Source: Escherichia coli (GTDB taxonomy: Bacteria; Pseudomonadota; Gammaproteobacteria; Enterobacterales; Enterobacteriaceae). Taken from it: a stretch of DNA of 64,000 nt. Below, in pieces: positions 28,334-61,666 of this stretch. Position 1 is the first letter of the stretch. Every line of letters starts with the position of its first letter. Below the pieces are notes generated by a model, which was not told the DNA's origin, made no database searches, and was given only the letters and a program-made list of their open reading frames with translations. The DNA is taken from assembly GCF_002854065.1 (NCBI RefSeq), contig NZ_CP024147.1. One strand, written 5' to 3'. The translations under genes were made by a program, and so were the position numbers.

Positions 28334-28876
28334 ATGGACGCATTTGATGTACTGACAAACAAAGGCGATGAACTGGTAGCACAGCGTGATAAAACCGCCA
28401 ACGAAGGGGAACGCGCACTGTTAAATAAGCAGATTAAAGCGATCCGTATGGCCCAGTTTAAATTAATCAGCAATGAAGTTATCGAAATAATTAAACCGCA
28501 GATCCCACAAATCGTTGCTGACGCTATTAAAGCCGCCGGACTGGAGAAACGCATTGCCGGGCTGAAAACGAACGCAGAGAAAATGGAGATGCACAAACAG
28601 AGCGGTGCTCCGACTCCGGATGAGTACTTCTCACCGGATGCTGAGTTTATGGCGCAGGTTGAGGAACGTCTGGGTAGCTGTCTCACCGAGGAACAGCGTC
28701 GCTATTTTGATGGAGTGGATAGTTCGGCAGGTATTGACCTGAACTCGTGTTTCGGTCGTGAAATTGAGCATTTTGATGCCGCCCCGTCTATGCCGGAGCC
28801 AGAACCAGAAATGGCCGCCGATCCTGAAGCTGAGCAACGGAAACGCGTATTCAATGCGATAGGGATTCGGTACTGA
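28334..28876 (+). CDS. Hypothetical prophage protein (180 aa) with acidic C-terminal tail
   Basis: Strong SD (ggagga) 7 nt upstream; predicted helical N-terminal half and PEPEPE-containing acidic tail; no recognisable motif. Confidence 0.55.
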   Translation: MDAFDVLTNKGDELVAQRDKTANEGERALLNKQIKAIRMAQFKLISNEVIEIIKPQIPQIVADAIKAAGLEKRIAGLKTNAEKMEMHKQSGAPTPDEYFSPDAEFMAQVEERLGSCLTEEQRRYFDGVDSSAGIDLNSCFGREIEHFDAAPSMPEPEPEMAADPEAEQRKRVFNAIGIRY

Positions 28877-28927
28877 TCGGATAAAAGAAAGCCGGGAATT
28901 ACCCCGGCTGACTTAACAATGTGACCA

Positions 28928-29302
28928 ATGAACAAATCGGACAAGACAAACAGGATAAGCAGTCTCGAAACAATGTTCGGGAACTATATTAGCACAAGTC
29001 CGGAGAAAATCATCATGTTGGCACTACGCATCATGCAGGGCATCGCTAAGACCCTCGCAGAACATGTCTTAGACCTGAAACATTCGCCACTGAGCAAACA
29101 GGCCATGAAGCGCCAAACGCTTCGTCTGTGGGCTGAATATTCGCTTGGAACTATCAATAAAATCATCGACATGAAATCGGGGCCGAGCAACCAGAGCGCG
29201 GAGGAAATGGAGTTCATCAGGCGTTTAATTCTCATTCGCAGAGATATTCATAGCCAGTTACACAGCGTGGGAATCGATATTAATGATGGGACGGGCGATT
29301 AA
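28928..29302 (+). CDS. Hypothetical prophage protein (124 aa)
   Basis: ORF in same cassette; basic, helical; no recognisable motif. Confidence 0.5.
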   Translation: MNKSDKTNRISSLETMFGNYISTSPEKIIMLALRIMQGIAKTLAEHVLDLKHSPLSKQAMKRQTLRLWAEYSLGTINKIIDMKSGPSNQSAEEMEFIRRLILIRRDIHSQLHSVGIDINDGTGD

Positions 29303-29340
29303 TTTTCGGACAAGTACAATGCGCGCGCGAGGAGCTGAAC

Positions 29341-29571
29341 ATGAAGCAAGATATTGCAGACAGGCTGGAGATACTCGAAGGCCAGCGGGCAGAAGCGAAA
29401 CAACTACGTAAGCAGGCCAGAAGAGCGCACAGGAACTACGAAGCAGAATCACTGACCGCTTTCATCAACTTCACAAACCGTTGCATCCAGGAGTGTTACA
29501 GGGAGGATGCAGAAAACTGGCTGGATTCATTGCCAGAACAGACTCTGCATGAACTGAACGGCGACCAGTAA
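29341..29571 (+). CDS. Hypothetical prophage protein (76 aa, coiled-coil-like)
   Basis: SD gaggag 7 nt upstream of ATG; Arg/Glu/Gln-rich helical sequence. Confidence 0.45.
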   Translation: MKQDIADRLEILEGQRAEAKQLRKQARRAHRNYEAESLTAFINFTNRCIQECYREDAENWLDSLPEQTLHELNGDQ

Positions 29572-29859
29572 ATAAATCCAGTACGTTTCCCGCAGTGCGC
29601 ATAACGTACATTATGTGAAAAACGATATGGATGTATATCAGTATTGATTTCATTGAGAAAACTGGGTTTTCAGTGGCACAGACAAAGAAGCATAGCTGAT
29701 ACAGCTTTATAAGCCATTGATTCTATTAAGTGATGTTTTTTGTGATTGGTTGAAGCAAACCAAAACACGATGCCACTGAAGCGTTAATAAACTGTTTCAA
29801 TGTGAAATTATTAGAGTAAAGAACAATTTGGAGGGTCCGCAAACGCGGATAACAATATC

Positions 29860-32040
29860 ATGAGTGGAAATCTCGGGACCATATACTACGAGGTCGATGC
29901 CCGCACTGGGAAACTTCTTATCGCGCAACAGCAGGCGGAAGAGGCGTTCGATCGCATTGAACGAGGAGCGCGGAAGGCTGATAGCGGCGTCAAAAAGTTA
30001 AATACGCAGATGACTAAAACATCAGCCGCAGTCAAAACCAACCTTTCCCCGGCAATCCGTAACGCATCATACCAGATCGCAGACCTTGCCACTCAATTGC
30101 AGATGGGCGGTAATGCGCTTCAGGCGTTCGCTGTGCAGGGTGCGCAGTTATTAGCTGGCTTTGGCACGATGGGCGCGGTAGCTGGCGCGGTGCTGGCTAT
30201 CGCTGGCGCTATGGGTGGAAGCCTGGCACAAGGCGCTGATAGTGCAGCCGGATCGGTTGAGTATCTGGACAAGGCGATCACCAAACTGAACGAGGTCATA
30301 GCTGTAAATGAACAGGGCGTGACGGTGATGAGTGATAGTTACGCCAGACTTTCTAAGGTTAACGCTGAAGTAGCGAAACAGATGCGGAACATGGCTGAAA
30401 TTCAGGCAATTGCAGCACTGCGTGACCTGAAAGAACAGGCAAGCCAGGCACAGGGGGAAATGTCGTCATTCTGGCGCAGCTTGCAGGGTGGTAAAGCTGA
30501 CGCAGCAGCAGCAGCACAGGCACTTGATGATCTTGGAATCACAACCAACGACTACAAAGAGGCGATAGCCATACTGAACGCCAATCAGCCGGATACACAG
30601 GCGCAAATGGCAACGCTAGCCAAATCCGTGATGTATGTTGGAGAGCAATATGATCTGACCAACCAGCAAGCATACGAATTTATACGCGCACTAAATAAGG
30701 CCGCGACAACGAAAACGCCGGAAGCCATGCAGGAGCTATCTGGCTTCATGCAGGTTTTGCTTCAGGATACCGAAAACGGTAACGAGGCATTCCGTGAACT
30801 GGCTATCAAATTCGTCGATGCACAAACCAAAGGCGCAATGTTGGAGGACCAACTAAACCGACTGAAAGGCGCTATTAGTGACGCAGCCACAGAAGCCAGA
30901 AACGCAAACTTTACCACTATGCTCAACACCGTCGCCGCACGCCTGGCAACCATTGAGCAAGGTTGGGAGGCAGGCGTTAGGATGCAGATGAAAGCCCAGG
31001 GCTACACTGAAGAGCAGATCGATGAATATGTGAACATGGAAACGGCGTACCGTGATGCAAAAGCCGCTTTGGACGAGAAGAACAAGGCCGACCGTGAAGC
31101 TATTGCGCTATCCAAACGCCAGGCCGCAGAAGCAGCCCGCAAGGCAAAACAGGAAGAAGCTGAAGCACAACGCAAGGCCAAACAGTTAGCCGCGCAGAAG
31201 GAGCAGGCAGGACGCTTTACGCAGCAAGTAATGACGGAATACCTGACGACCGTAGATCCGGCAACAGGCAAGGCGTTTAACCCTGCCGCACAAGTAGAAA
31301 TGCAGGAGCAGCAGAAGAAAGCGGCGCTGGATAAATACAGACAGTTGGGCGTCCTGGATGAACAGCAGTACCAGAACACGCTAACCGCCATCCAGAAAAC
31401 CGCGTCAATGCGCCGCCAGCAAATCATCAAAGACGAGGCCGACACGTTATTCAACAATCAGCAACAGTTGATCGGCACATTTGGCGATTTCTTCGGTGAA
31501 CTGTCTGGAGTCATAGCAGACGGTGCAGGTGAGCAAAACGCGGCATATCAAGCGCTATTTGCTGTGCAGAAGGGTTTTGTATTGGCATCAGCAGCTTTAA
31601 GCCTTCAGAAAGCGCTTGCTGAGGCAAACGCCTTGCCTTTCCCGGCTAATCTTCCGGCCTATGCGCAAGCTATGTCAGCAGGTACGCAGATCATTTCAGC
31701 TATTCGTGGAATAGCTTTCGGTGGCGGACGCTACAACGGCGGCGCGGTTGGTGCTGGCAACCTGTACCGCGTGGGTGAACACGGTAAGCCTGAGATATTC
31801 AAGGCGAACAATGGCAGCCAGTACATGATCCCAGGTGATAACGGTCGCGTGATAAGTAATCGTGACATTGGCGGCGGTGGCGGCGTAACAATCAACAGCC
31901 CGATCACCATTAACACTACGAATGGCTTCAGTGATGAAGACTCAAGGCGTCTTGAGGAAGCGATGAAGCGCGTAGCTATGGGCGTTTGCAGGCAGGAGTC
32001 AACCAGACCGGGAGGAATGTTAGCCCCGCGCCGTCGTTAA
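29860..32040 (+). CDS. Phage tail tape-measure-like protein
   Basis: 726-aa Ala/Gln-rich mostly helical ORF with glycine-rich hydrophobic N-terminal segment, long coiled-coil region (AEAARKAKQEEAEAQRKAKQLAAQKEQ) and C-terminal Gly-rich motif GGGRYNGGAVGAGNLYRVGEHG resembling the lambda gpH C-terminus as recalled. Confidence 0.65.
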   Translation: MSGNLGTIYYEVDARTGKLLIAQQQAEEAFDRIERGARKADSGVKKLNTQMTKTSAAVKTNLSPAIRNASYQIADLATQLQMGGNALQAFAVQGAQLLAGFGTMGAVAGAVLAIAGAMGGSLAQGADSAAGSVEYLDKAITKLNEVIAVNEQGVTVMSDSYARLSKVNAEVAKQMRNMAEIQAIAALRDLKEQASQAQGEMSSFWRSLQGGKADAAAAAQALDDLGITTNDYKEAIAILNANQPDTQAQMATLAKSVMYVGEQYDLTNQQAYEFIRALNKAATTKTPEAMQELSGFMQVLLQDTENGNEAFRELAIKFVDAQTKGAMLEDQLNRLKGAISDAATEARNANFTTMLNTVAARLATIEQGWEAGVRMQMKAQGYTEEQIDEYVNMETAYRDAKAALDEKNKADREAIALSKRQAAEAARKAKQEEAEAQRKAKQLAAQKEQAGRFTQQVMTEYLTTVDPATGKAFNPAAQVEMQEQQKKAALDKYRQLGVLDEQQYQNTLTAIQKTASMRRQQIIKDEADTLFNNQQQLIGTFGDFFGELSGVIADGAGEQNAAYQALFAVQKGFVLASAALSLQKALAEANALPFPANLPAYAQAMSAGTQIISAIRGIAFGGGRYNGGAVGAGNLYRVGEHGKPEIFKANNGSQYMIPGDNGRVISNRDIGGGGGVTINSPITINTTNGFSDEDSRRLEEAMKRVAMGVCRQESTRPGGMLAPRRR

Positions 32041-32163
32041 CCAAATCCCACGCCAGGGGAACAGACTGGCGGACCTTCAAAGACGGTCGCACACCGTGTT
32101 TGACATAATTTATTGTTTTTTGCTTGCTCTTATTATTGCAGCCGTTAGGGTAATGACTCCAAC

Positions 32164-32667
32164 TTATTGATAGTGTTTTATGTTCAGATAATGCCCGATG
32201 ACTTTGTCATGCAGCTCCACCGATTTTGAGAACGACAGCGACTTCCGTCCCAGCCGTGCCAGGTGCTGCCTCAGATTCAGGTTATGCCGCTCAATTCGCT
32301 GCGTATATCGCTTGCTGATTACGTGCAGCTTTCCCTTCAGGCGGGATTCATACAGCGGCCAGCCATCCGTCATCCATATCACCACGTCAAAGGGTGACAG
32401 CAGGCTCATAAGACGCCCCAGCGTCGCCATAGTGCGTTCACCGAATACGTGCGCAACAACCGTCTTCCGGAGACTGTCATACGCGTAAAACAGCCAGCGC
32501 TGGCGCGATTTAGCCCCGACGTATCCCCACTGTTCGTCCATTTCCGCGCAGACGATGACGTCACTGCCCGGCTGTATGCGCGAGGTTACCGACTGCGGCC
32601 TGAGTTTTTTAAATGGCGGAAAATCGTGTTGAGGCCAACGCCCATAATGCGGGCGGTTGCCCGGCAT
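32164..32667 (-). CDS. insB: IS1 InsB reading frame (expressed as InsAB transposase by -1 frameshift)
   Basis: 167-aa ORF overlapping the insA 3-prime end in the -1 frame, classic IS1 organisation. Confidence 0.85.
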
Positions 32668-32861
32668 CCAACGCCATTCATGGCCATATCAATGATTTTC
32701 TGGTGCGTACCGGGTTGAGAAGCGGTGTAAGTGAACTGCAGTTGCCATGTTTTACGGCAGTGAGAGCAGAGATAGCGCTGATGTCCGGCAGTGCTTTTGC
32801 CGTTACGCACCACCCCGTCAGTAGCTGAACAGGAGGGACAGCTGATAGAAACAGAAGCCAC
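32586..32861 (-). CDS. insA: IS1 InsA protein
   Basis: 91-aa [46 protein letters not shown] with zinc-finger cysteines. Confidence 0.9.
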
Positions 32862-32988
32862 TGGAGCACCTCAAAAACACCATCATACACTAAATCAGTA
32901 AGTTGGCAGCATCACCAGCTTTACTAATATATTGCAGCTGGACCGCTTACCCTGAATATTCAGGGTAAGCGTGAGAGTTAAAAAAGAA

Positions 32989-56777: not shown

Positions 56778-57350
56778 TTGACACTGTCATCGCAACATTA
56801 TCTGGTGATCACTGCGTTGGGTGCCGATCGCCCTGGAATTGTGAACACCATCACCCGTCATGTCAGTAGTTGCGGCTGTAATATTGAAGACAGTCGCCTG
56901 GCGATGCTGGGAGAAGAGTTCACGTTTATCATGCTGCTTTCCGGTTCATGGAATGCCATTACTCTGATTGAATCAACGTTACCGTTGAAAGGTGCCGAAC
57001 TGGATCTTTTAATCGTGATGAAGCGCACGACGGCGCGTCCGCGTCCGCCAATGCCAGCATCTGTCTGGGTTCAGGTCGATGTTGCAGACTCCCCGCATTT
57101 AATTGAACGCTTCACAGCACTTTTCGACGCGCATCATATGAACATTGCGGAGCTGGTGTCGCGCACACAACCTGCTGAAAATGAACGGGCTGCGCAGTTG
57201 CATATTCAGATTACTGCCCACAGCCCCGCATCTGCGGACGCAGCAAATATTGAGCAAGCGTTCAAAGCCCTATGTACAGAACTCAATGCACAAGGCAGTA
57301 TTAACGTCGTCAATTATTCCCAACATGATGAACAGGATGGAGTTAAGTAA
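56778..57350 (+). CDS. gcvR: Glycine cleavage system transcriptional repressor (TTG start)
   Basis: Tandem ACT-like domains; start set at TTG 56778 (TLSSQHYLVITALGADRPG) inside the longer track ORF. Confidence 0.8.
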   Translation: MTLSSQHYLVITALGADRPGIVNTITRHVSSCGCNIEDSRLAMLGEEFTFIMLLSGSWNAITLIESTLPLKGAELDLLIVMKRTTARPRPPMPASVWVQVDVADSPHLIERFTALFDAHHMNIAELVSRTQPAENERAAQLHIQITAHSPASADAANIEQAFKALCTELNAQGSINVVNYSQHDEQDGVK

Positions 57351-57820
57351 TGAATCCACTGAAAGCCGGTGATATCGCACCGAAATTTAGCTTGCCGGAT
57401 CAAGACGGAGAACAAGTTAATTTGACCGACTTCCAGGGACAGCGTGTTCTGGTTTATTTCTACCCGAAAGCCATGACCCCCGGCTGTACCGTACAGGCCT
57501 GCGGCTTACGCGATAACATGGATGAGTTGAAAAAAGCGGGCGTTGATGTGCTGGGTATCAGCACCGATAAACCCGAAAAACTCTCCCGTTTTGCGGAAAA
57601 AGAGCTGCTTAACTTTACGCTCCTGTCTGATGAGGACCACCAGGTGTGCGAGCAATTCGGCGTCTGGGGGGAAAAGTCCTTCATGGGCAAAACCTACGAT
57701 GGTATTCATCGCATCAGCTTCCTGATTGACGCTGATGGCAAAATCGAACATGTCTTTGACGATTTCAAAACCAGCAATCACCACGACGTTGTGCTGAACT
57801 GGCTGAAAGAACACGCCTGA
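57350..57820 (+). CDS. bcp: Peroxiredoxin Bcp (thiol peroxidase)
   Basis: 156-aa ORF with peroxiredoxin motif (PGCT). Confidence 0.9.
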   Translation: MNPLKAGDIAPKFSLPDQDGEQVNLTDFQGQRVLVYFYPKAMTPGCTVQACGLRDNMDELKKAGVDVLGISTDKPEKLSRFAEKELLNFTLLSDEDHQVCEQFGVWGEKSFMGKTYDGIHRISFLIDADGKIEHVFDDFKTSNHHDVVLNWLKEHA

Positions 57821-58015
57821 TTACTTTGCTCCATTCCGTGCTGGCTGCGCTTGCGGTCAGCACACCTCACTTATCGTGATCAAGATCACATTCTCGCTTT
57901 CCCCTGCGACACGGGTGTCGAATCCATTTTTTGCTGAACGTTAATGACCATCATTTTTGTACCGTTCAGAATCCAGTTAATTCATAAATTATTGAATATA
58001 TTAAATTAATCAGAC

Positions 58016-58031
58016 TGGCATCCTTTATGCA
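58016..58031 (+). promoter_or_regulatory. Candidate sigma-54 (-24/-12) promoter of the hyf operon
   Basis: TGGCAT-N7-TGCA with GG at 58017-58018 and GC at 58029-58030, matching the TGGCAC-N5-TTGCA spacing. Confidence 0.5.
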
Positions 58032-58033
58032 AT

Positions 58034-58690
58034 ATGAAATGCAATGTTTCATATCATTTTCAAGGAGCCGACATAAACCGCTTTGTGGTGGCCGAACCAC
58101 TGTGGTGTACAGGATGTAATACCTGTCTCGCTGCCTGTTCGGACGTGCATAAAACGCAAGGTTTACAGCAACACCCGCGCCTGGCCCTGGCGAAGACGTC
58201 AACACTCACTGCCCCTGTCGTGTGTCATCACTGTGAGGAAGCCCCTTGCCTGCAGGTCTGCCCGGTCAATGCCATCTCCCAGAGGGATGATGCGATCCAA
58301 CTCAACGAAAGCCTCTGTATTGGCTGCAAGCTTTGCGCCGTGGTCTGCCCATTTGGCGCAATCAGCGCTTCAGGAAGCCGTCCGGTGAATGCCCCTGCGC
58401 AATATGTTTTTCAGGCTGAAGGCTCACTCAAAGACGGCGAAGAAAACGCGCCAACCCAACATGCTTTGCTGCGCTGGGAACCGGGTGTCCAGACCGTCGC
58501 GGTGAAATGCGACCTGTGTGATTTCTTGCCACAAGGTCCGGCCTGCGTTCGCGCTTGCCCGAATCAGGCGTTACGGCTGATCACCGACGATAGCCTGCAA
58601 CGTCAGATGAAAGAAAAACAGCGCCTTGCCGCAAGCTGGTTTGCCAATGGCGGGGAGGATCCCCTTTCCCTCACTCAGGAGCAACGCTAA
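58034..58690 (+). CDS. hyfA: Hydrogenase-4 component A, 4Fe-4S ferredoxin-type subunit (start codon uncertain, probably downstream near 58073)
   Basis: Multiple CxxCxxCxxxCP ferredoxin motifs; first gene of the hyf cluster. Confidence 0.8.
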   Translation: MKCNVSYHFQGADINRFVVAEPLWCTGCNTCLAACSDVHKTQGLQQHPRLALAKTSTLTAPVVCHHCEEAPCLQVCPVNAISQRDDAIQLNESLCIGCKLCAVVCPFGAISASGSRPVNAPAQYVFQAEGSLKDGEENAPTQHALLRWEPGVQTVAVKCDLCDFLPQGPACVRACPNQALRLITDDSLQRQMKEKQRLAASWFANGGEDPLSLTQEQR

Positions 58691-60708
58691 TGGATGCCCT
58701 GCAATTATTAACCTGGTCGCTGATCCTCTATCTGTTTGCCAGTCTGGCTTCGCTGTTTTTACTCGGTCTGGACAGACTGGCTATTAAGCTTTCCGGCATC
58801 ACATCGCTGGTGGGCGGCGTGATTGGCATTATCAGCGGAATTACGCAATTACATGCAGGCGTAACTTTAGTCGCCCGTTTTGCCACCCCTTTTGACTTTG
58901 CCGATTTAACCCTGCGAATGGATAGCCTCTCGGCATTTATGGTGCTGGTTATCTCCTTGCTGGTGGTGGTTTGTTCGCTCTATTCATTGACTTATATGCG
59001 CGAATACGAGGGCAAAGGCGCGGCGGCGATGGGCTTCTTTATGAATATTTTCATCGCATCGATGGTTGCCCTGCTGGTGATGGACAACGCTTTTTGGTTC
59101 ATCGTGCTGTTTGAAATGATGTCACTGTCTTCCTGGTTTCTGGTCATTGCCAGGCAGGATAAAAGGTCGATCAACGCTGGCATGCTCTACTTTTTTATCG
59201 CCCACGCCGGATCGGTGCTGATAATGATCGCCTTCTTGCTGATGGGGCGCGAAAGCGGCAGCCTCGATTTTGCCAGTTTCCGCACGCTTTCACTTTCTCC
59301 GGGGCTGGCGTCGGCGGTGTTCCTGCTGGCCTTTTTCGGTTTTGGCGCGAAAGCCGGGATGATGCCGTTGCACAGCTGGTTGCCGCGCGCTCACCCTGCC
59401 GCACCATCGCACGCTTCGGCGTTGATGTCTGGCGTAATGGTCAAAATCGGTATTTTCGGCATCCTGAAAGTGGCGATGGATCTGCTGGCGCAAACGGGTT
59501 TGCCGCTGTGGTGGGGCATTCTGGTGATGGCGATCGGCGCAATCTCCGCGCTCCTGGGCGTGCTGTATGCGCTGGCGGAACAGGATATCAAACGGCTGCT
59601 GGCCTGGAGTACCGTCGAAAACGTCGGCATTATTTTGCTGGCAGTCGGTGTGGCGATGGTCGGTCTGTCACTGCACGACCCGCTGCTCACCGTGGTTGGA
59701 CTGCTCGGCGCACTGTTTCATCTGCTCAACCATGCGCTGTTCAAAGGGCTGCTATTTCTCGGCGCGGGCGCGATTATTTCGCGTTTGCATACCCACGACA
59801 TGGAAAAAATGGGGGCACTGGCGAAACGGATGCCGTGGACAGCCGCAGCATGCCTGATTGGTTGCCTCGCGATATCAGCCATTCCTCCGCTGAATGGTTT
59901 TATCAGCGAATGGTACACCTGGCAGTCGCTGTTCTCACTAAGTCGTGTGGAAGCCGTAGCGCTACAACTTGCGGGTCCTATTGCTATGGTAATGCTGGCA
60001 GTCACTGGTGGGCTGGCAGTAATGTGCTTCGTCAAAATGTACGGTATTACTTTCTGTGGTGCGCCGCGCAGTACACACGCTGAAGAGGCACAGGAAGTGC
60101 CAAATACGATGATCGTCGCCATGCTACTGCTCGCGGCACTCTGCGTATTAATTGCGCTTAGTGCCAGTTGGCTGGCACCGAAGATAATGCATATTGCCCA
60201 TGCGTTTACCAATACCCCTCCCGTCACTGTCGCCAGCGGAATAGCACTTGTACCCGGCACGTTTCATACACAGGTCACCCCCTCATTACTGTTGCTGTTA
60301 CTACTGGCGATGCCTTTGCTGCCTGGCCTTTACTGGCTGTGGTGTCGTTCGCGCCGCGCAGCGTTTCGTCGCACAGGAGATGCCTGGGCATGCGGCTACG
60401 GCTGGGAAAATGCGATGGCCCCGTCAGGCAATGGCGTGATGCAGCCGCTGCGTGTGGTCTTTTCTGCGCTATTTCGTCTACGACAACAGCTCGACCCTAC
60501 GCTGAGGCTAAATAAAGGCCTTGCGCACGTCACCGCCAGGGCTCAGAGCACAGAACCCTTCTGGGATGAGCGGGTGATCCGCCCCATCGTGAGCGCCACC
60601 CAACGGCTGGCCAAAGAAATACAGCATCTGCAAAGCGGCGACTTTCGTCTCTATTGCCTGTATGTGGTTGCCGCACTGGTTGTGCTGCTAATCGCTATTG
60701 CCGTCTAA
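58690..60708 (+). CDS. hyfB: Hydrogenase-4 membrane subunit B (NuoL/MnhA-like antiporter subunit)
   Basis: 672-aa polytopic membrane ORF. Confidence 0.9.
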   Translation: MDALQLLTWSLILYLFASLASLFLLGLDRLAIKLSGITSLVGGVIGIISGITQLHAGVTLVARFATPFDFADLTLRMDSLSAFMVLVISLLVVVCSLYSLTYMREYEGKGAAAMGFFMNIFIASMVALLVMDNAFWFIVLFEMMSLSSWFLVIARQDKRSINAGMLYFFIAHAGSVLIMIAFLLMGRESGSLDFASFRTLSLSPGLASAVFLLAFFGFGAKAGMMPLHSWLPRAHPAAPSHASALMSGVMVKIGIFGILKVAMDLLAQTGLPLWWGILVMAIGAISALLGVLYALAEQDIKRLLAWSTVENVGIILLAVGVAMVGLSLHDPLLTVVGLLGALFHLLNHALFKGLLFLGAGAIISRLHTHDMEKMGALAKRMPWTAAACLIGCLAISAIPPLNGFISEWYTWQSLFSLSRVEAVALQLAGPIAMVMLAVTGGLAVMCFVKMYGITFCGAPRSTHAEEAQEVPNTMIVAMLLLAALCVLIALSASWLAPKIMHIAHAFTNTPPVTVASGIALVPGTFHTQVTPSLLLLLLLAMPLLPGLYWLWCRSRRAAFRRTGDAWACGYGWENAMAPSGNGVMQPLRVVFSALFRLRQQLDPTLRLNKGLAHVTARAQSTEPFWDERVIRPIVSATQRLAKEIQHLQSGDFRLYCLYVVAALVVLLIAIAV

Positions 60709-60718
60709 GGAAATCACC

Positions 60719-61666
60719 ATGAGACAAACTCTTTGCGACGGATATCTGGTCATTCTTGCGTTAGCACAGGCCGTGATTCTGCTGATGCTAACCCCACTTT
60801 TTACGGGTATTTCCCGGCAGATACGCGCGCGAATGCACTCCCGCCGCGGACCGGGGATCTGGCAGGATTATCGCGATATCCACAAACTGTTTAAACGCCA
60901 GGAAGTTGCGCCGACATCTTCAGGTCTGATGTTCCGCCTGATGCCGTGGGTATTAATCAGCAGCATGCTGGTGCTGGCGATGGCCCTACCACTATTTATT
61001 ACCGTTTCCCCTTTTGCGGGCGGCGGCGATCTGATCACCCTTATCTATCTTCTTGCCCTGTTTCGTTTTTTCTTTGCTCTTTCAGGGCTGGATACCGGAA
61101 GCCCGTTTGCGGGAGTCGGTGCCAGTCGCGAGTTGACGCTCGGCATTCTGGTCGAACCCATGCTCATTCTCTCACTGCTGGTATTGGCGCTGATAGCGGA
61201 TTCCACGCATATCGAGATGATCAGCAATACGCTGGCGATGGGCTGGAACTCGCCGCTAACCACCGTACTGGCGTTACTGGCCTGTGGTTTTGCCTGCTTC
61301 ATTGAGATGGGAAAAATTCCCTTTGATGTTGCTGAAGCAGAACAGGAATTACAGGAAGGCCCGCTGACAGAATATTCCGGTGCCGGGCTGGCGCTGGCGA
61401 AATGGGGGCTGGGGCTGAAACAGGTCGTGATGGCAGCACTGTTTGTGGCCCTGTTTCTGCCCTTTGAGCGCGCGCAAGAACTTTCTCTCGCCTGCCTGCT
61501 GACTTCACTTGTCGTTACGCTGCTCAAGGTTTTGCTGATTTTTGTACTGGCCTCAATCGCAGAAAACACGCTGGCACGCGGGCGTTTTTTACTCATTCAC
61601 CATGTGACCTGGCTTGGCTTCAGCCTTGCTGCGCTTGCATGGGTCTTCTGGTTAACCGGTCTGTAA
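60719..61666 (+). CDS. hyfC: Hydrogenase-4 membrane subunit C (NuoH-like)
   Basis: Polytopic membrane ORF; start refined to ATG at 60719 (MRQTLCDGYL). Confidence 0.85.
   Translation: MRQTLCDGYLVILALAQAVILLMLTPLFTGISRQIRARMHSRRGPGIWQDYRDIHKLFKRQEVAPTSSGLMFRLMPWVLISSMLVLAMALPLFITVSPFAGGGDLITLIYLLALFRFFFALSGLDTGSPFAGVGASRELTLGILVEPMLILSLLVLALIADSTHIEMISNTLAMGWNSPLTTVLALLACGFACFIEMGKIPFDVAEAEQELQEGPLTEYSGAGLALAKWGLGLKQVVMAALFVALFLPFERAQELSLACLLTSLVVTLLKVLLIFVLASIAENTLARGRFLLIHHVTWLGFSLAALAWVFWLTGL

Follow-up and report, generated by a model that had tools for sequence, protein, structure and literature searches.

In the 64,000-nucleotide stretch of Escherichia coli DNA analysed here (hereafter the window), the codon found where the hydrogenase-4 gene hyfA is expected to begin is ATA, which raises the question of how this gene comes to lack an ordinary start and what is left of its product. 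A preliminary description of the locus offered two alternatives: either hyfA is initiated non-canonically, or its start codon in this DNA is not that of the reference. The comparisons described below uphold the second, and show that a G>A transition at 58075, derived and specific to one lineage, turned the hyfA ATG into ATA; the first has to be invoked only for residual HyfA, as a consequence of that change. Promoter and gene were already known; what had gone unremarked is the ATA, a natural allele of a familiar type, start-codon loss.

The hyf locus in the window

The stretch 58011-58090 comprises part of the 252-bp bcp-hyfA intergenic region of E. coli and the beginning of hyfA. Upstream of hyfA lie dapA, gcvR and bcp, and downstream lie hyfB, hyfC, hyfD, hyfE and the start of hyfF; this order agrees with the RefSeq annotation, and hyfA is the first gene of hyfABCDEFGHIJR, of which hyfR falls outside the window. 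The ATG of hyfB overlaps the hyfA stop codon (TAATG), a layout that allows translational coupling. The genes hyfC (ATG at 60719), hyfD and hyfE are full length in the window, and everything from hyfB to the start of hyfJ is full length in the lineage that carries the ATA. A Shigella or otherwise heavily decayed genome was considered as the source of the DNA and rejected: 25 kb of it match E. coli strain 100416 at about 99.97% identity, and hyfB to hyfE are intact.

Read with M at position 1, the 205-aa sequence encoded by hyfA of the window is identical to one on record (P0001) under the source name hydrogenase 4 subunit HyfA, and Fer4 Pfam domains are recorded for it; judged from these matches, the product is the ferredoxin-type Fe-S subunit of hydrogenase 4. 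An NCBIfam scan of HyfA returned paralogue models only, with no HyfA-specific model above the cut-off.

The sigma-54 promoter

The preliminary description had placed a -24/-12 element across the start of the open reading frame. Read directly from the sequence, TGGCAT lies at 58016-58021 and TGCA at 58028-58031, and the ATG at 58034, the AAGGAG, the ATA at 58073 and the GTG at 58085 are likewise where that description had put them, in the one frame of the 218-aa open reading frame (ORF). Its spacer of seven nucleotides between TGGCAT and TGCA has to be corrected to six (N6). In consensus form the promoter is TGGCAT-CCTTT-ATGCA, that is, TGGCAT-N5-ATGCA, and its GG and GC are 12 nt apart (GG-N10-GC), as they are in TGGCAC-N5-TTGCA, the consensus with invariant GG and GC by which sigma-54 sites were judged here. 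A degenerate pattern, TGGCAY-N6-TGCW, has one match in the 64-kb window as against 1.15 expected in shuffled sequence and is not rarer than chance; the promoter is credible because of its location and its match to a known K-12 site, not because of statistics.

That site is the sigma-54 ChIP-seq site OS23 upstream of hyfA in K-12, ATGGCATCCTTTATGCA, for which transcription is predicted to start 31 nt from hyfA and which carries the EcoCyc mark 'confirmed' (PMC4591121). The bcp-hyfA spacer also gives the strongest RpoN-holoenzyme gSELEX peak in K-12 (PMC8743547). The window sequence, CTGGCATCCTTTATGCA, is identical to the K-12 site ATGGCATCCTTTATGCA at 16 of 17 positions, the one difference being a non-core base at the 5' edge of the motif, and both the -24 and the -12 element are kept in Citrobacter amalonaticus. 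From the identity with K-12, sigma-54 holoenzyme would be expected to bind at the window site, which is positioned to drive hyfA, and 58016..58031 is none other than the hyf promoter already characterised in E. coli. We take this promoter to be sigma-54-dependent and activated by FhlA and HyfR in K-12. Primer extension, reportedly by Skibinski et al. 2002 (J Bacteriol 184:6642), is said to have placed the hyfA start 30 bp upstream of hyfA.

The preliminary description had predicted transcription to start near 58042. The C of the -12 GC lies at 58030, and adding 12 gives the same position, in agreement with both sigma-54 geometry and the 31-nt distance of K-12 (PMC4591121); by analogy with K-12, transcription in the window strain would begin at about 58042. 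Among seven diverse E. coli sequences, no site varies from 58043 to 58072. Compared with the K-12 hyf locus (hyfA being b2481), the window has the same bcp-hyfA-hyfB order, the same -24/-12 core, leader of about 30 nt, Shine-Dalgarno (SD) sequence and HyfA sequence; it differs by ATA for ATG and by the single non-core promoter base. The features of the region are collected in Table 1.

Table 1. Coordinates of features around the hyfA start and of hyfB in the window
Feature	Position	Strand	Remarks
Sigma-54 promoter of the hyf operon	58016..58031	+	-24 TGGCAT (GG 58017-18); -12 (A)TGCA (GC 58029-30)
Upstream in-frame ATG	58034..58036	+	Start of the mechanical 218-aa ORF (58034..58690); not the real start
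Predicted transcription start and 5' UTR of about 30 nt	58042 (+/-1)..58072	+	From sigma-54 geometry and the K-12 31-nt distance
hyfA Shine-Dalgarno AAGGAG	58062..58067	+	5 nt before codon 1 (spacer 58068-72)
hyfA initiation codon	58073..58075	+	ATA in the window, ATG in relatives; G>A at 58075
hyfA coding region	58073..58690	+	205 codons and TAA; intact apart from codon 1
Two in-frame GTG, codons 5 and 6	58085-87, 58088-90	+	17 and 20 nt past the SD
hyfB Shine-Dalgarno AGGAG	58677..58681	+	8 nt before the hyfB ATG; read in the sequence
hyfB	58690..60708	+	Intact, 672 aa

The hyfA initiation codon

RefSeq lets hyfA begin at the base equivalent to 58073 of the window in the two nearest complete genomes, those of strain 100416 (Gambia) and CUWW06, and its product (WP_001400729.1, 205 aa) opens with MNRFVV, exactly the N-terminus that the preliminary description had given for this position. 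Over 880 bp, A versus G at 58075 is the sole mismatch between the window and these two genomes. Profiles of three paralogue families, AegA (N-terminus), HydN and YgfT, have their first position opposite residue 14 of the 218-aa ORF, the ATA codon itself; this is where homology to the family sets in, and the 13 residues in front of it lie outside the family. The annotated start of hyfA (58073-75) is thus occupied in the window by a codon that is not a canonical initiation codon.

The ATA is rare. A 59-mer centred on it finds no exact counterpart among the 4297 complete hyf-bearing E. coli genomes, whereas the same 59-mer with ATG is found at 100% identity in 4282 of them, and a 31-mer with ATA matches no JGI metagenome contig. 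The AAGGAG is identical across diverse E. coli and in C. amalonaticus, whose hyfA has ATG behind it; when a degenerate pattern running from the SD to codon 10 was searched in the GTDB species-representative genomes, C. amalonaticus was the sole match. The alignment to reference hyfA that the preliminary description had proposed as a check thus finds ATG in the relatives and ATA in the window, and a reference with the same ATA, which could have spoken for an established alternative start, was not found among the 4297 genomes.

Apart from this codon everything is wild type: the promoter, the leader of 30 nt, the AAGGAG and its 5-nt spacer, and the remaining coding sequence. The mutation hits nothing but the start codon of a gene that stands behind a known sigma-54 promoter. 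The base change and its intact surroundings are observed directly, as are its rarity and its inheritance (see below). We hold it to be highly probable that a lineage-specific G>A change in the start codon has left hyfA with no usable canonical start and has made it a strong hypomorph or an effective null. The allele is derived, restricted to one lineage and without an alternative start served by an SD; it is an ordinary rare loss-of-start variant and not a new mode of initiation.

Consequences for HyfA and HyfB

For the reasons given under alternative starts, hyfA appears to have no good replacement start; with no usable canonical start, HyfA could therefore be made only by near-cognate initiation at AUA. 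In E. coli reporters, AUA, AUC, AUU and CUG initiate at 0.02-3% of AUG (bioRxiv 10.1101/063800). By analogy with these reporter studies, residual initiation at the hyfA AUA is most likely about 0.02-3% of AUG, and initiation at 58073 would still yield the fMet-Asn-Arg-Phe N-terminus. The best-supported reading is that HyfA would be down by about two orders of magnitude or more, making this a leaky loss-of-start allele. For the Fe-S electron-transfer subunit of hydrogenase-4 (formate hydrogenlyase-2), this would amount to a strong hypomorph or, in effect, a null. The next gene, hyfB, may lose translational coupling from hyfA; it has an SD of its own.

Natural start-codon-loss alleles resemble the window in that a single transition kills the start in a shallow lineage while orthologues keep ATG, and in that there is no SD-served replacement start and the rest of the gene is intact. 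They differ in that the ATA of the window is near-cognate, and here traces of authentic protein would be expected from a leaky allele rather than an absolute null.

Since E. coli hyf is expressed poorly in the laboratory (PMC7384014, with reference to Skibinski 2002 and Self 2004), the phenotypic effect of the ATA may be undetectable. E. coli hyf is also described as lacking an accessory gene (PMC7384014). In short, the allele is one more natural knock-down of a poorly expressed and often disabled operon, and reveals no new mechanism. Together with an ATG strain such as 100416, it does provide a ready-made isogenic pair for finding out whether Hyd-4 makes any contribution in vivo.

Loss and possible silencing of hyf across E. 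coli

Roughly a fifth of complete E. coli genomes, about 1130 of 5426, have no hyf operon (ST131, for example); genomes lacking it match only the first 49 bases after bcp (57821-57869 of the window) and have no hyfA. Where the operon is present, hyfB often carries a 1-bp deletion (TTTCCGC>TTTCGC; CC>C at 59279/80 of the window, at about codon 197). An exact 59-mer with this deletion occurs in 1257 of 4292 hyf-bearing complete genomes; RefSeq labels such a hyfB 'frameshifted', and the gene is a pseudogene in about 29% of hyf-bearing genomes. A further change, 58017 G>A, strikes the essential GG of the -24 element and converts it to TAGCAT (GG>AG). It is found in ERR10376543, a sister isolate of the ATA lineage, in seven complete genomes of the 22-245 haplotype and in six genomes on a window-like haplotype, O145:H28 strains included, which makes at least 13 complete genomes on at least two further haplotype backgrounds. 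It would seem to be a recurrent variant that inactivates the promoter.

The hyfB deletion, the -24 GG>AG change and the absence of the operon affect the same operon as the ATA, but none of them is present in the window, where the damage is limited to the hyfA start codon and leaves both promoter and hyfB intact. The ATA allele fits the pattern of a dispensable, frequently lost operon. A more ambitious interpretation, which we regard as unlikely, would make it one episode in a recurrent, possibly selected, stepwise silencing of hydrogenase-4 in E. coli; it draws on the -24 change that ERR10376543 has acquired within the shallow ATA lineage, on the recurrence of that change elsewhere and on the frequent hyfB frameshift. 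A promoter hit following the loss of the start so closely would suggest that a membrane complex without HyfA is costly to express and that shutting off the promoter was then favoured.

Alternative starts

Could HyfA be rescued from another start codon in the same frame? The frame is open from the ATG at 58034, and the mechanical 218-aa ORF starts there because such an ORF takes the earliest start codon that follows a stop. Counted from the predicted transcription start, this ATG falls at -8 to -6, past the -12 element but still inside the sigma-54 promoter; lying upstream of that start, it would be absent from the sigma-54 transcript, and on this point the reasoning of the preliminary description holds. 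No purine-rich SD is found upstream of it, it is missing in C. amalonaticus, and the paralogue profiles do not cover the 13-aa extension that it would add.

Downstream of the ATA, the two GTG codons are the sole canonical starts that retain the first Cys cluster, and neither has an SD of its own. The preliminary description had called the GTG at 58085 poorly spaced, and at 17 nt from the SD it is; an SD-spacing study by Chen et al. 1994 is said to give a tolerated range of about 5-13 nt. Bases 58085-89 pair with 58096-58100 in a predicted local hairpin, in which the second GTG (58088-90) is partly paired; the fold is no more stable than shuffled sequences (z = 0.5). A structural effect of the SNP itself was considered and dropped, as the folds of the ATA and ATG leaders are essentially alike and neither is more stable than shuffles.

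Rescue would thus take one of two forms: an extended protein of 218 aa begun at the ATG at 58034 on transcripts reading through from bcp, or a protein begun at either GTG and lacking MNRF(V). The first Cys of HyfA is codon 12 and both kinds of product would keep every Cys motif; moreover, the first stem after bcp is without a strong T-run, and some read-through is conceivable. However, the ATG lacks an SD and lies in front of the predicted start; no sigma-70-like promoter was found in a scan of 57600-58300; a terminator-like site and a strong hairpin follow bcp; the extension has no homology to the family and is lacking in Citrobacter; and of the two GTGs, both beyond normal reach of the SD, the first lies in a predicted stem and the second is partly paired. 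On balance we find rescue distinctly improbable. No 201-aa or 200-aa HyfA product is recorded in the protein collection, and low-level protein of these lengths may arise from the GTGs, or via 70S scanning from the SD.

The practical value of the allele lies mainly in annotation. Mechanical ORF calling carries hyfA back to a spurious ATG within the gene's own promoter (218 aa), and a homology-based pipeline would need to call hyfA either a pseudogene or a gene with a non-canonical start. Awareness that the true start codon is mutated averts both mistakes.

Comparison with regulated non-AUG starts

The genes infC and pcnB have AUU starts. Another gene with an unusual start is lacI, which begins with GTG (PMC11445065). 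In all three a near-cognate codon is correctly spaced from a good SD, as it is in the hyfA of the window, and one may ask whether the ATA is likewise a functional, selected non-canonical start that tunes HyfA down, on the model of the AUU of infC or the GTG of lacI, which is beneficial to gut E. coli. Near-cognate AUA does initiate measurably, in commensal E. coli a start other than ATG can be adaptive (PMC11445065), and the SD and its spacing are intact and optimal. However, conservation of the unusual codon is what defines regulated non-AUG starts, and the codons of infC, pcnB and lacI are conserved across strains and species, whereas orthologues of hyfA do not share the ATA: it occurs in none of the 4297 genomes, the ATG context being exact in 4282 of them, and Citrobacter has ATG as well. 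The ATA is, moreover, limited to a very shallow lineage that is 7 SNPs in 25 kb away from an ATG strain, and one member of this lineage has a mutation in the promoter's -24 GG as well, a combination more in keeping with silencing than with tuning. A tuned start is, on these grounds, very improbable. Any initiation at AUA would be a consequence of the mutation, not a trait conserved in hyfA.

Inheritance and age of the ATA allele

The exact 218-aa ORF, which requires Ile at the start codon, is recorded on four contigs in NCBI and Logan, two of which (GCA_035821435.1 and ERR10376543) were read at the nucleotide level. The NCBI draft GCA_035821435.1 has ATA and, over 16 kb, departs from the window at two positions, 53802 and 62759; the Logan assembly ERR10376543 also has ATA and differs solely at 58017 over 9.4 kb. 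Because these non-identical assemblies share the ATA while differing at one or two other SNPs, the ATA is inherited and not an assembly error. The nearest genome with ATG, strain 100416, is 7 SNPs from the window in 25 kb, and the hyf genes from hyfB to the start of hyfJ are still full length in the ATA lineage; the allele is recent and confined to a small, shallow lineage.

That an error of sequencing or assembly produced the A at 58075 in a genome that really has ATG was rejected as exceedingly improbable: although the A departs from the closest complete genomes by one base only and zero complete RefSeq E. coli genomes have ATA, the codon is present in three non-identical assemblies (the window, GCA_035821435.1 and the independent ERR10376543), the latter two each with differences of their own, and the ORF that depends on it is recorded on four contigs.

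Other features of the region and of the window

The 171 bp from 58034 to 58204, which cover the downstream edge of the promoter, the leader and the first 44 or so codons of hyfA, are invariant among seven diverse E. coli sequences except for the ATA. The invariance extends to synonymous sites, whereas 4.5-15% of sites vary in the flanks, and from the SD to codon 9 hyfA is identical in Citrobacter amalonaticus. Such a pattern suggests constraint at the nucleotide level and would count against simple neutrality. An Rfam scan of 57300-58800 gave nothing above noise.

Two further elements lie between bcp and the promoter. Just after the bcp stop codon, 57838-57863 forms a hairpin with an 11-bp stem (-22.9 kcal/mol, z = -3.4) and no T-run, which may be a transcript-end or stabiliser element of bcp. 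At 57907-57920, some 130 nt ahead of the point where transcription is predicted to start, there is a perfect inverted repeat (CGACAC-GG-GTGTCG) with a T-rich tail, which was flagged as terminator-like in the scan; its position and its TGTCG/CGACA half-sites would, we presume, also suit an upstream activator site for FhlA or HyfR.

The first 39 kb of the window are collinear with strain 100416 except for one 3.7-kb prophage segment beside an IS1. This prophage-remnant segment (28447-32147) adjoins the IS1 copy at 32150-32920, is absent from strain 100416, and contains a 726-aa ORF that, judged by eye, resembles a tail tape-measure protein. In strain 100416 an IS1 abuts the point at which the segment is deleted, and the difference looks like an IS1-associated deletion/insertion polymorphism in a prophage remnant beside maeB and the eut genes, a remnant that we take to be CPZ-55-like.
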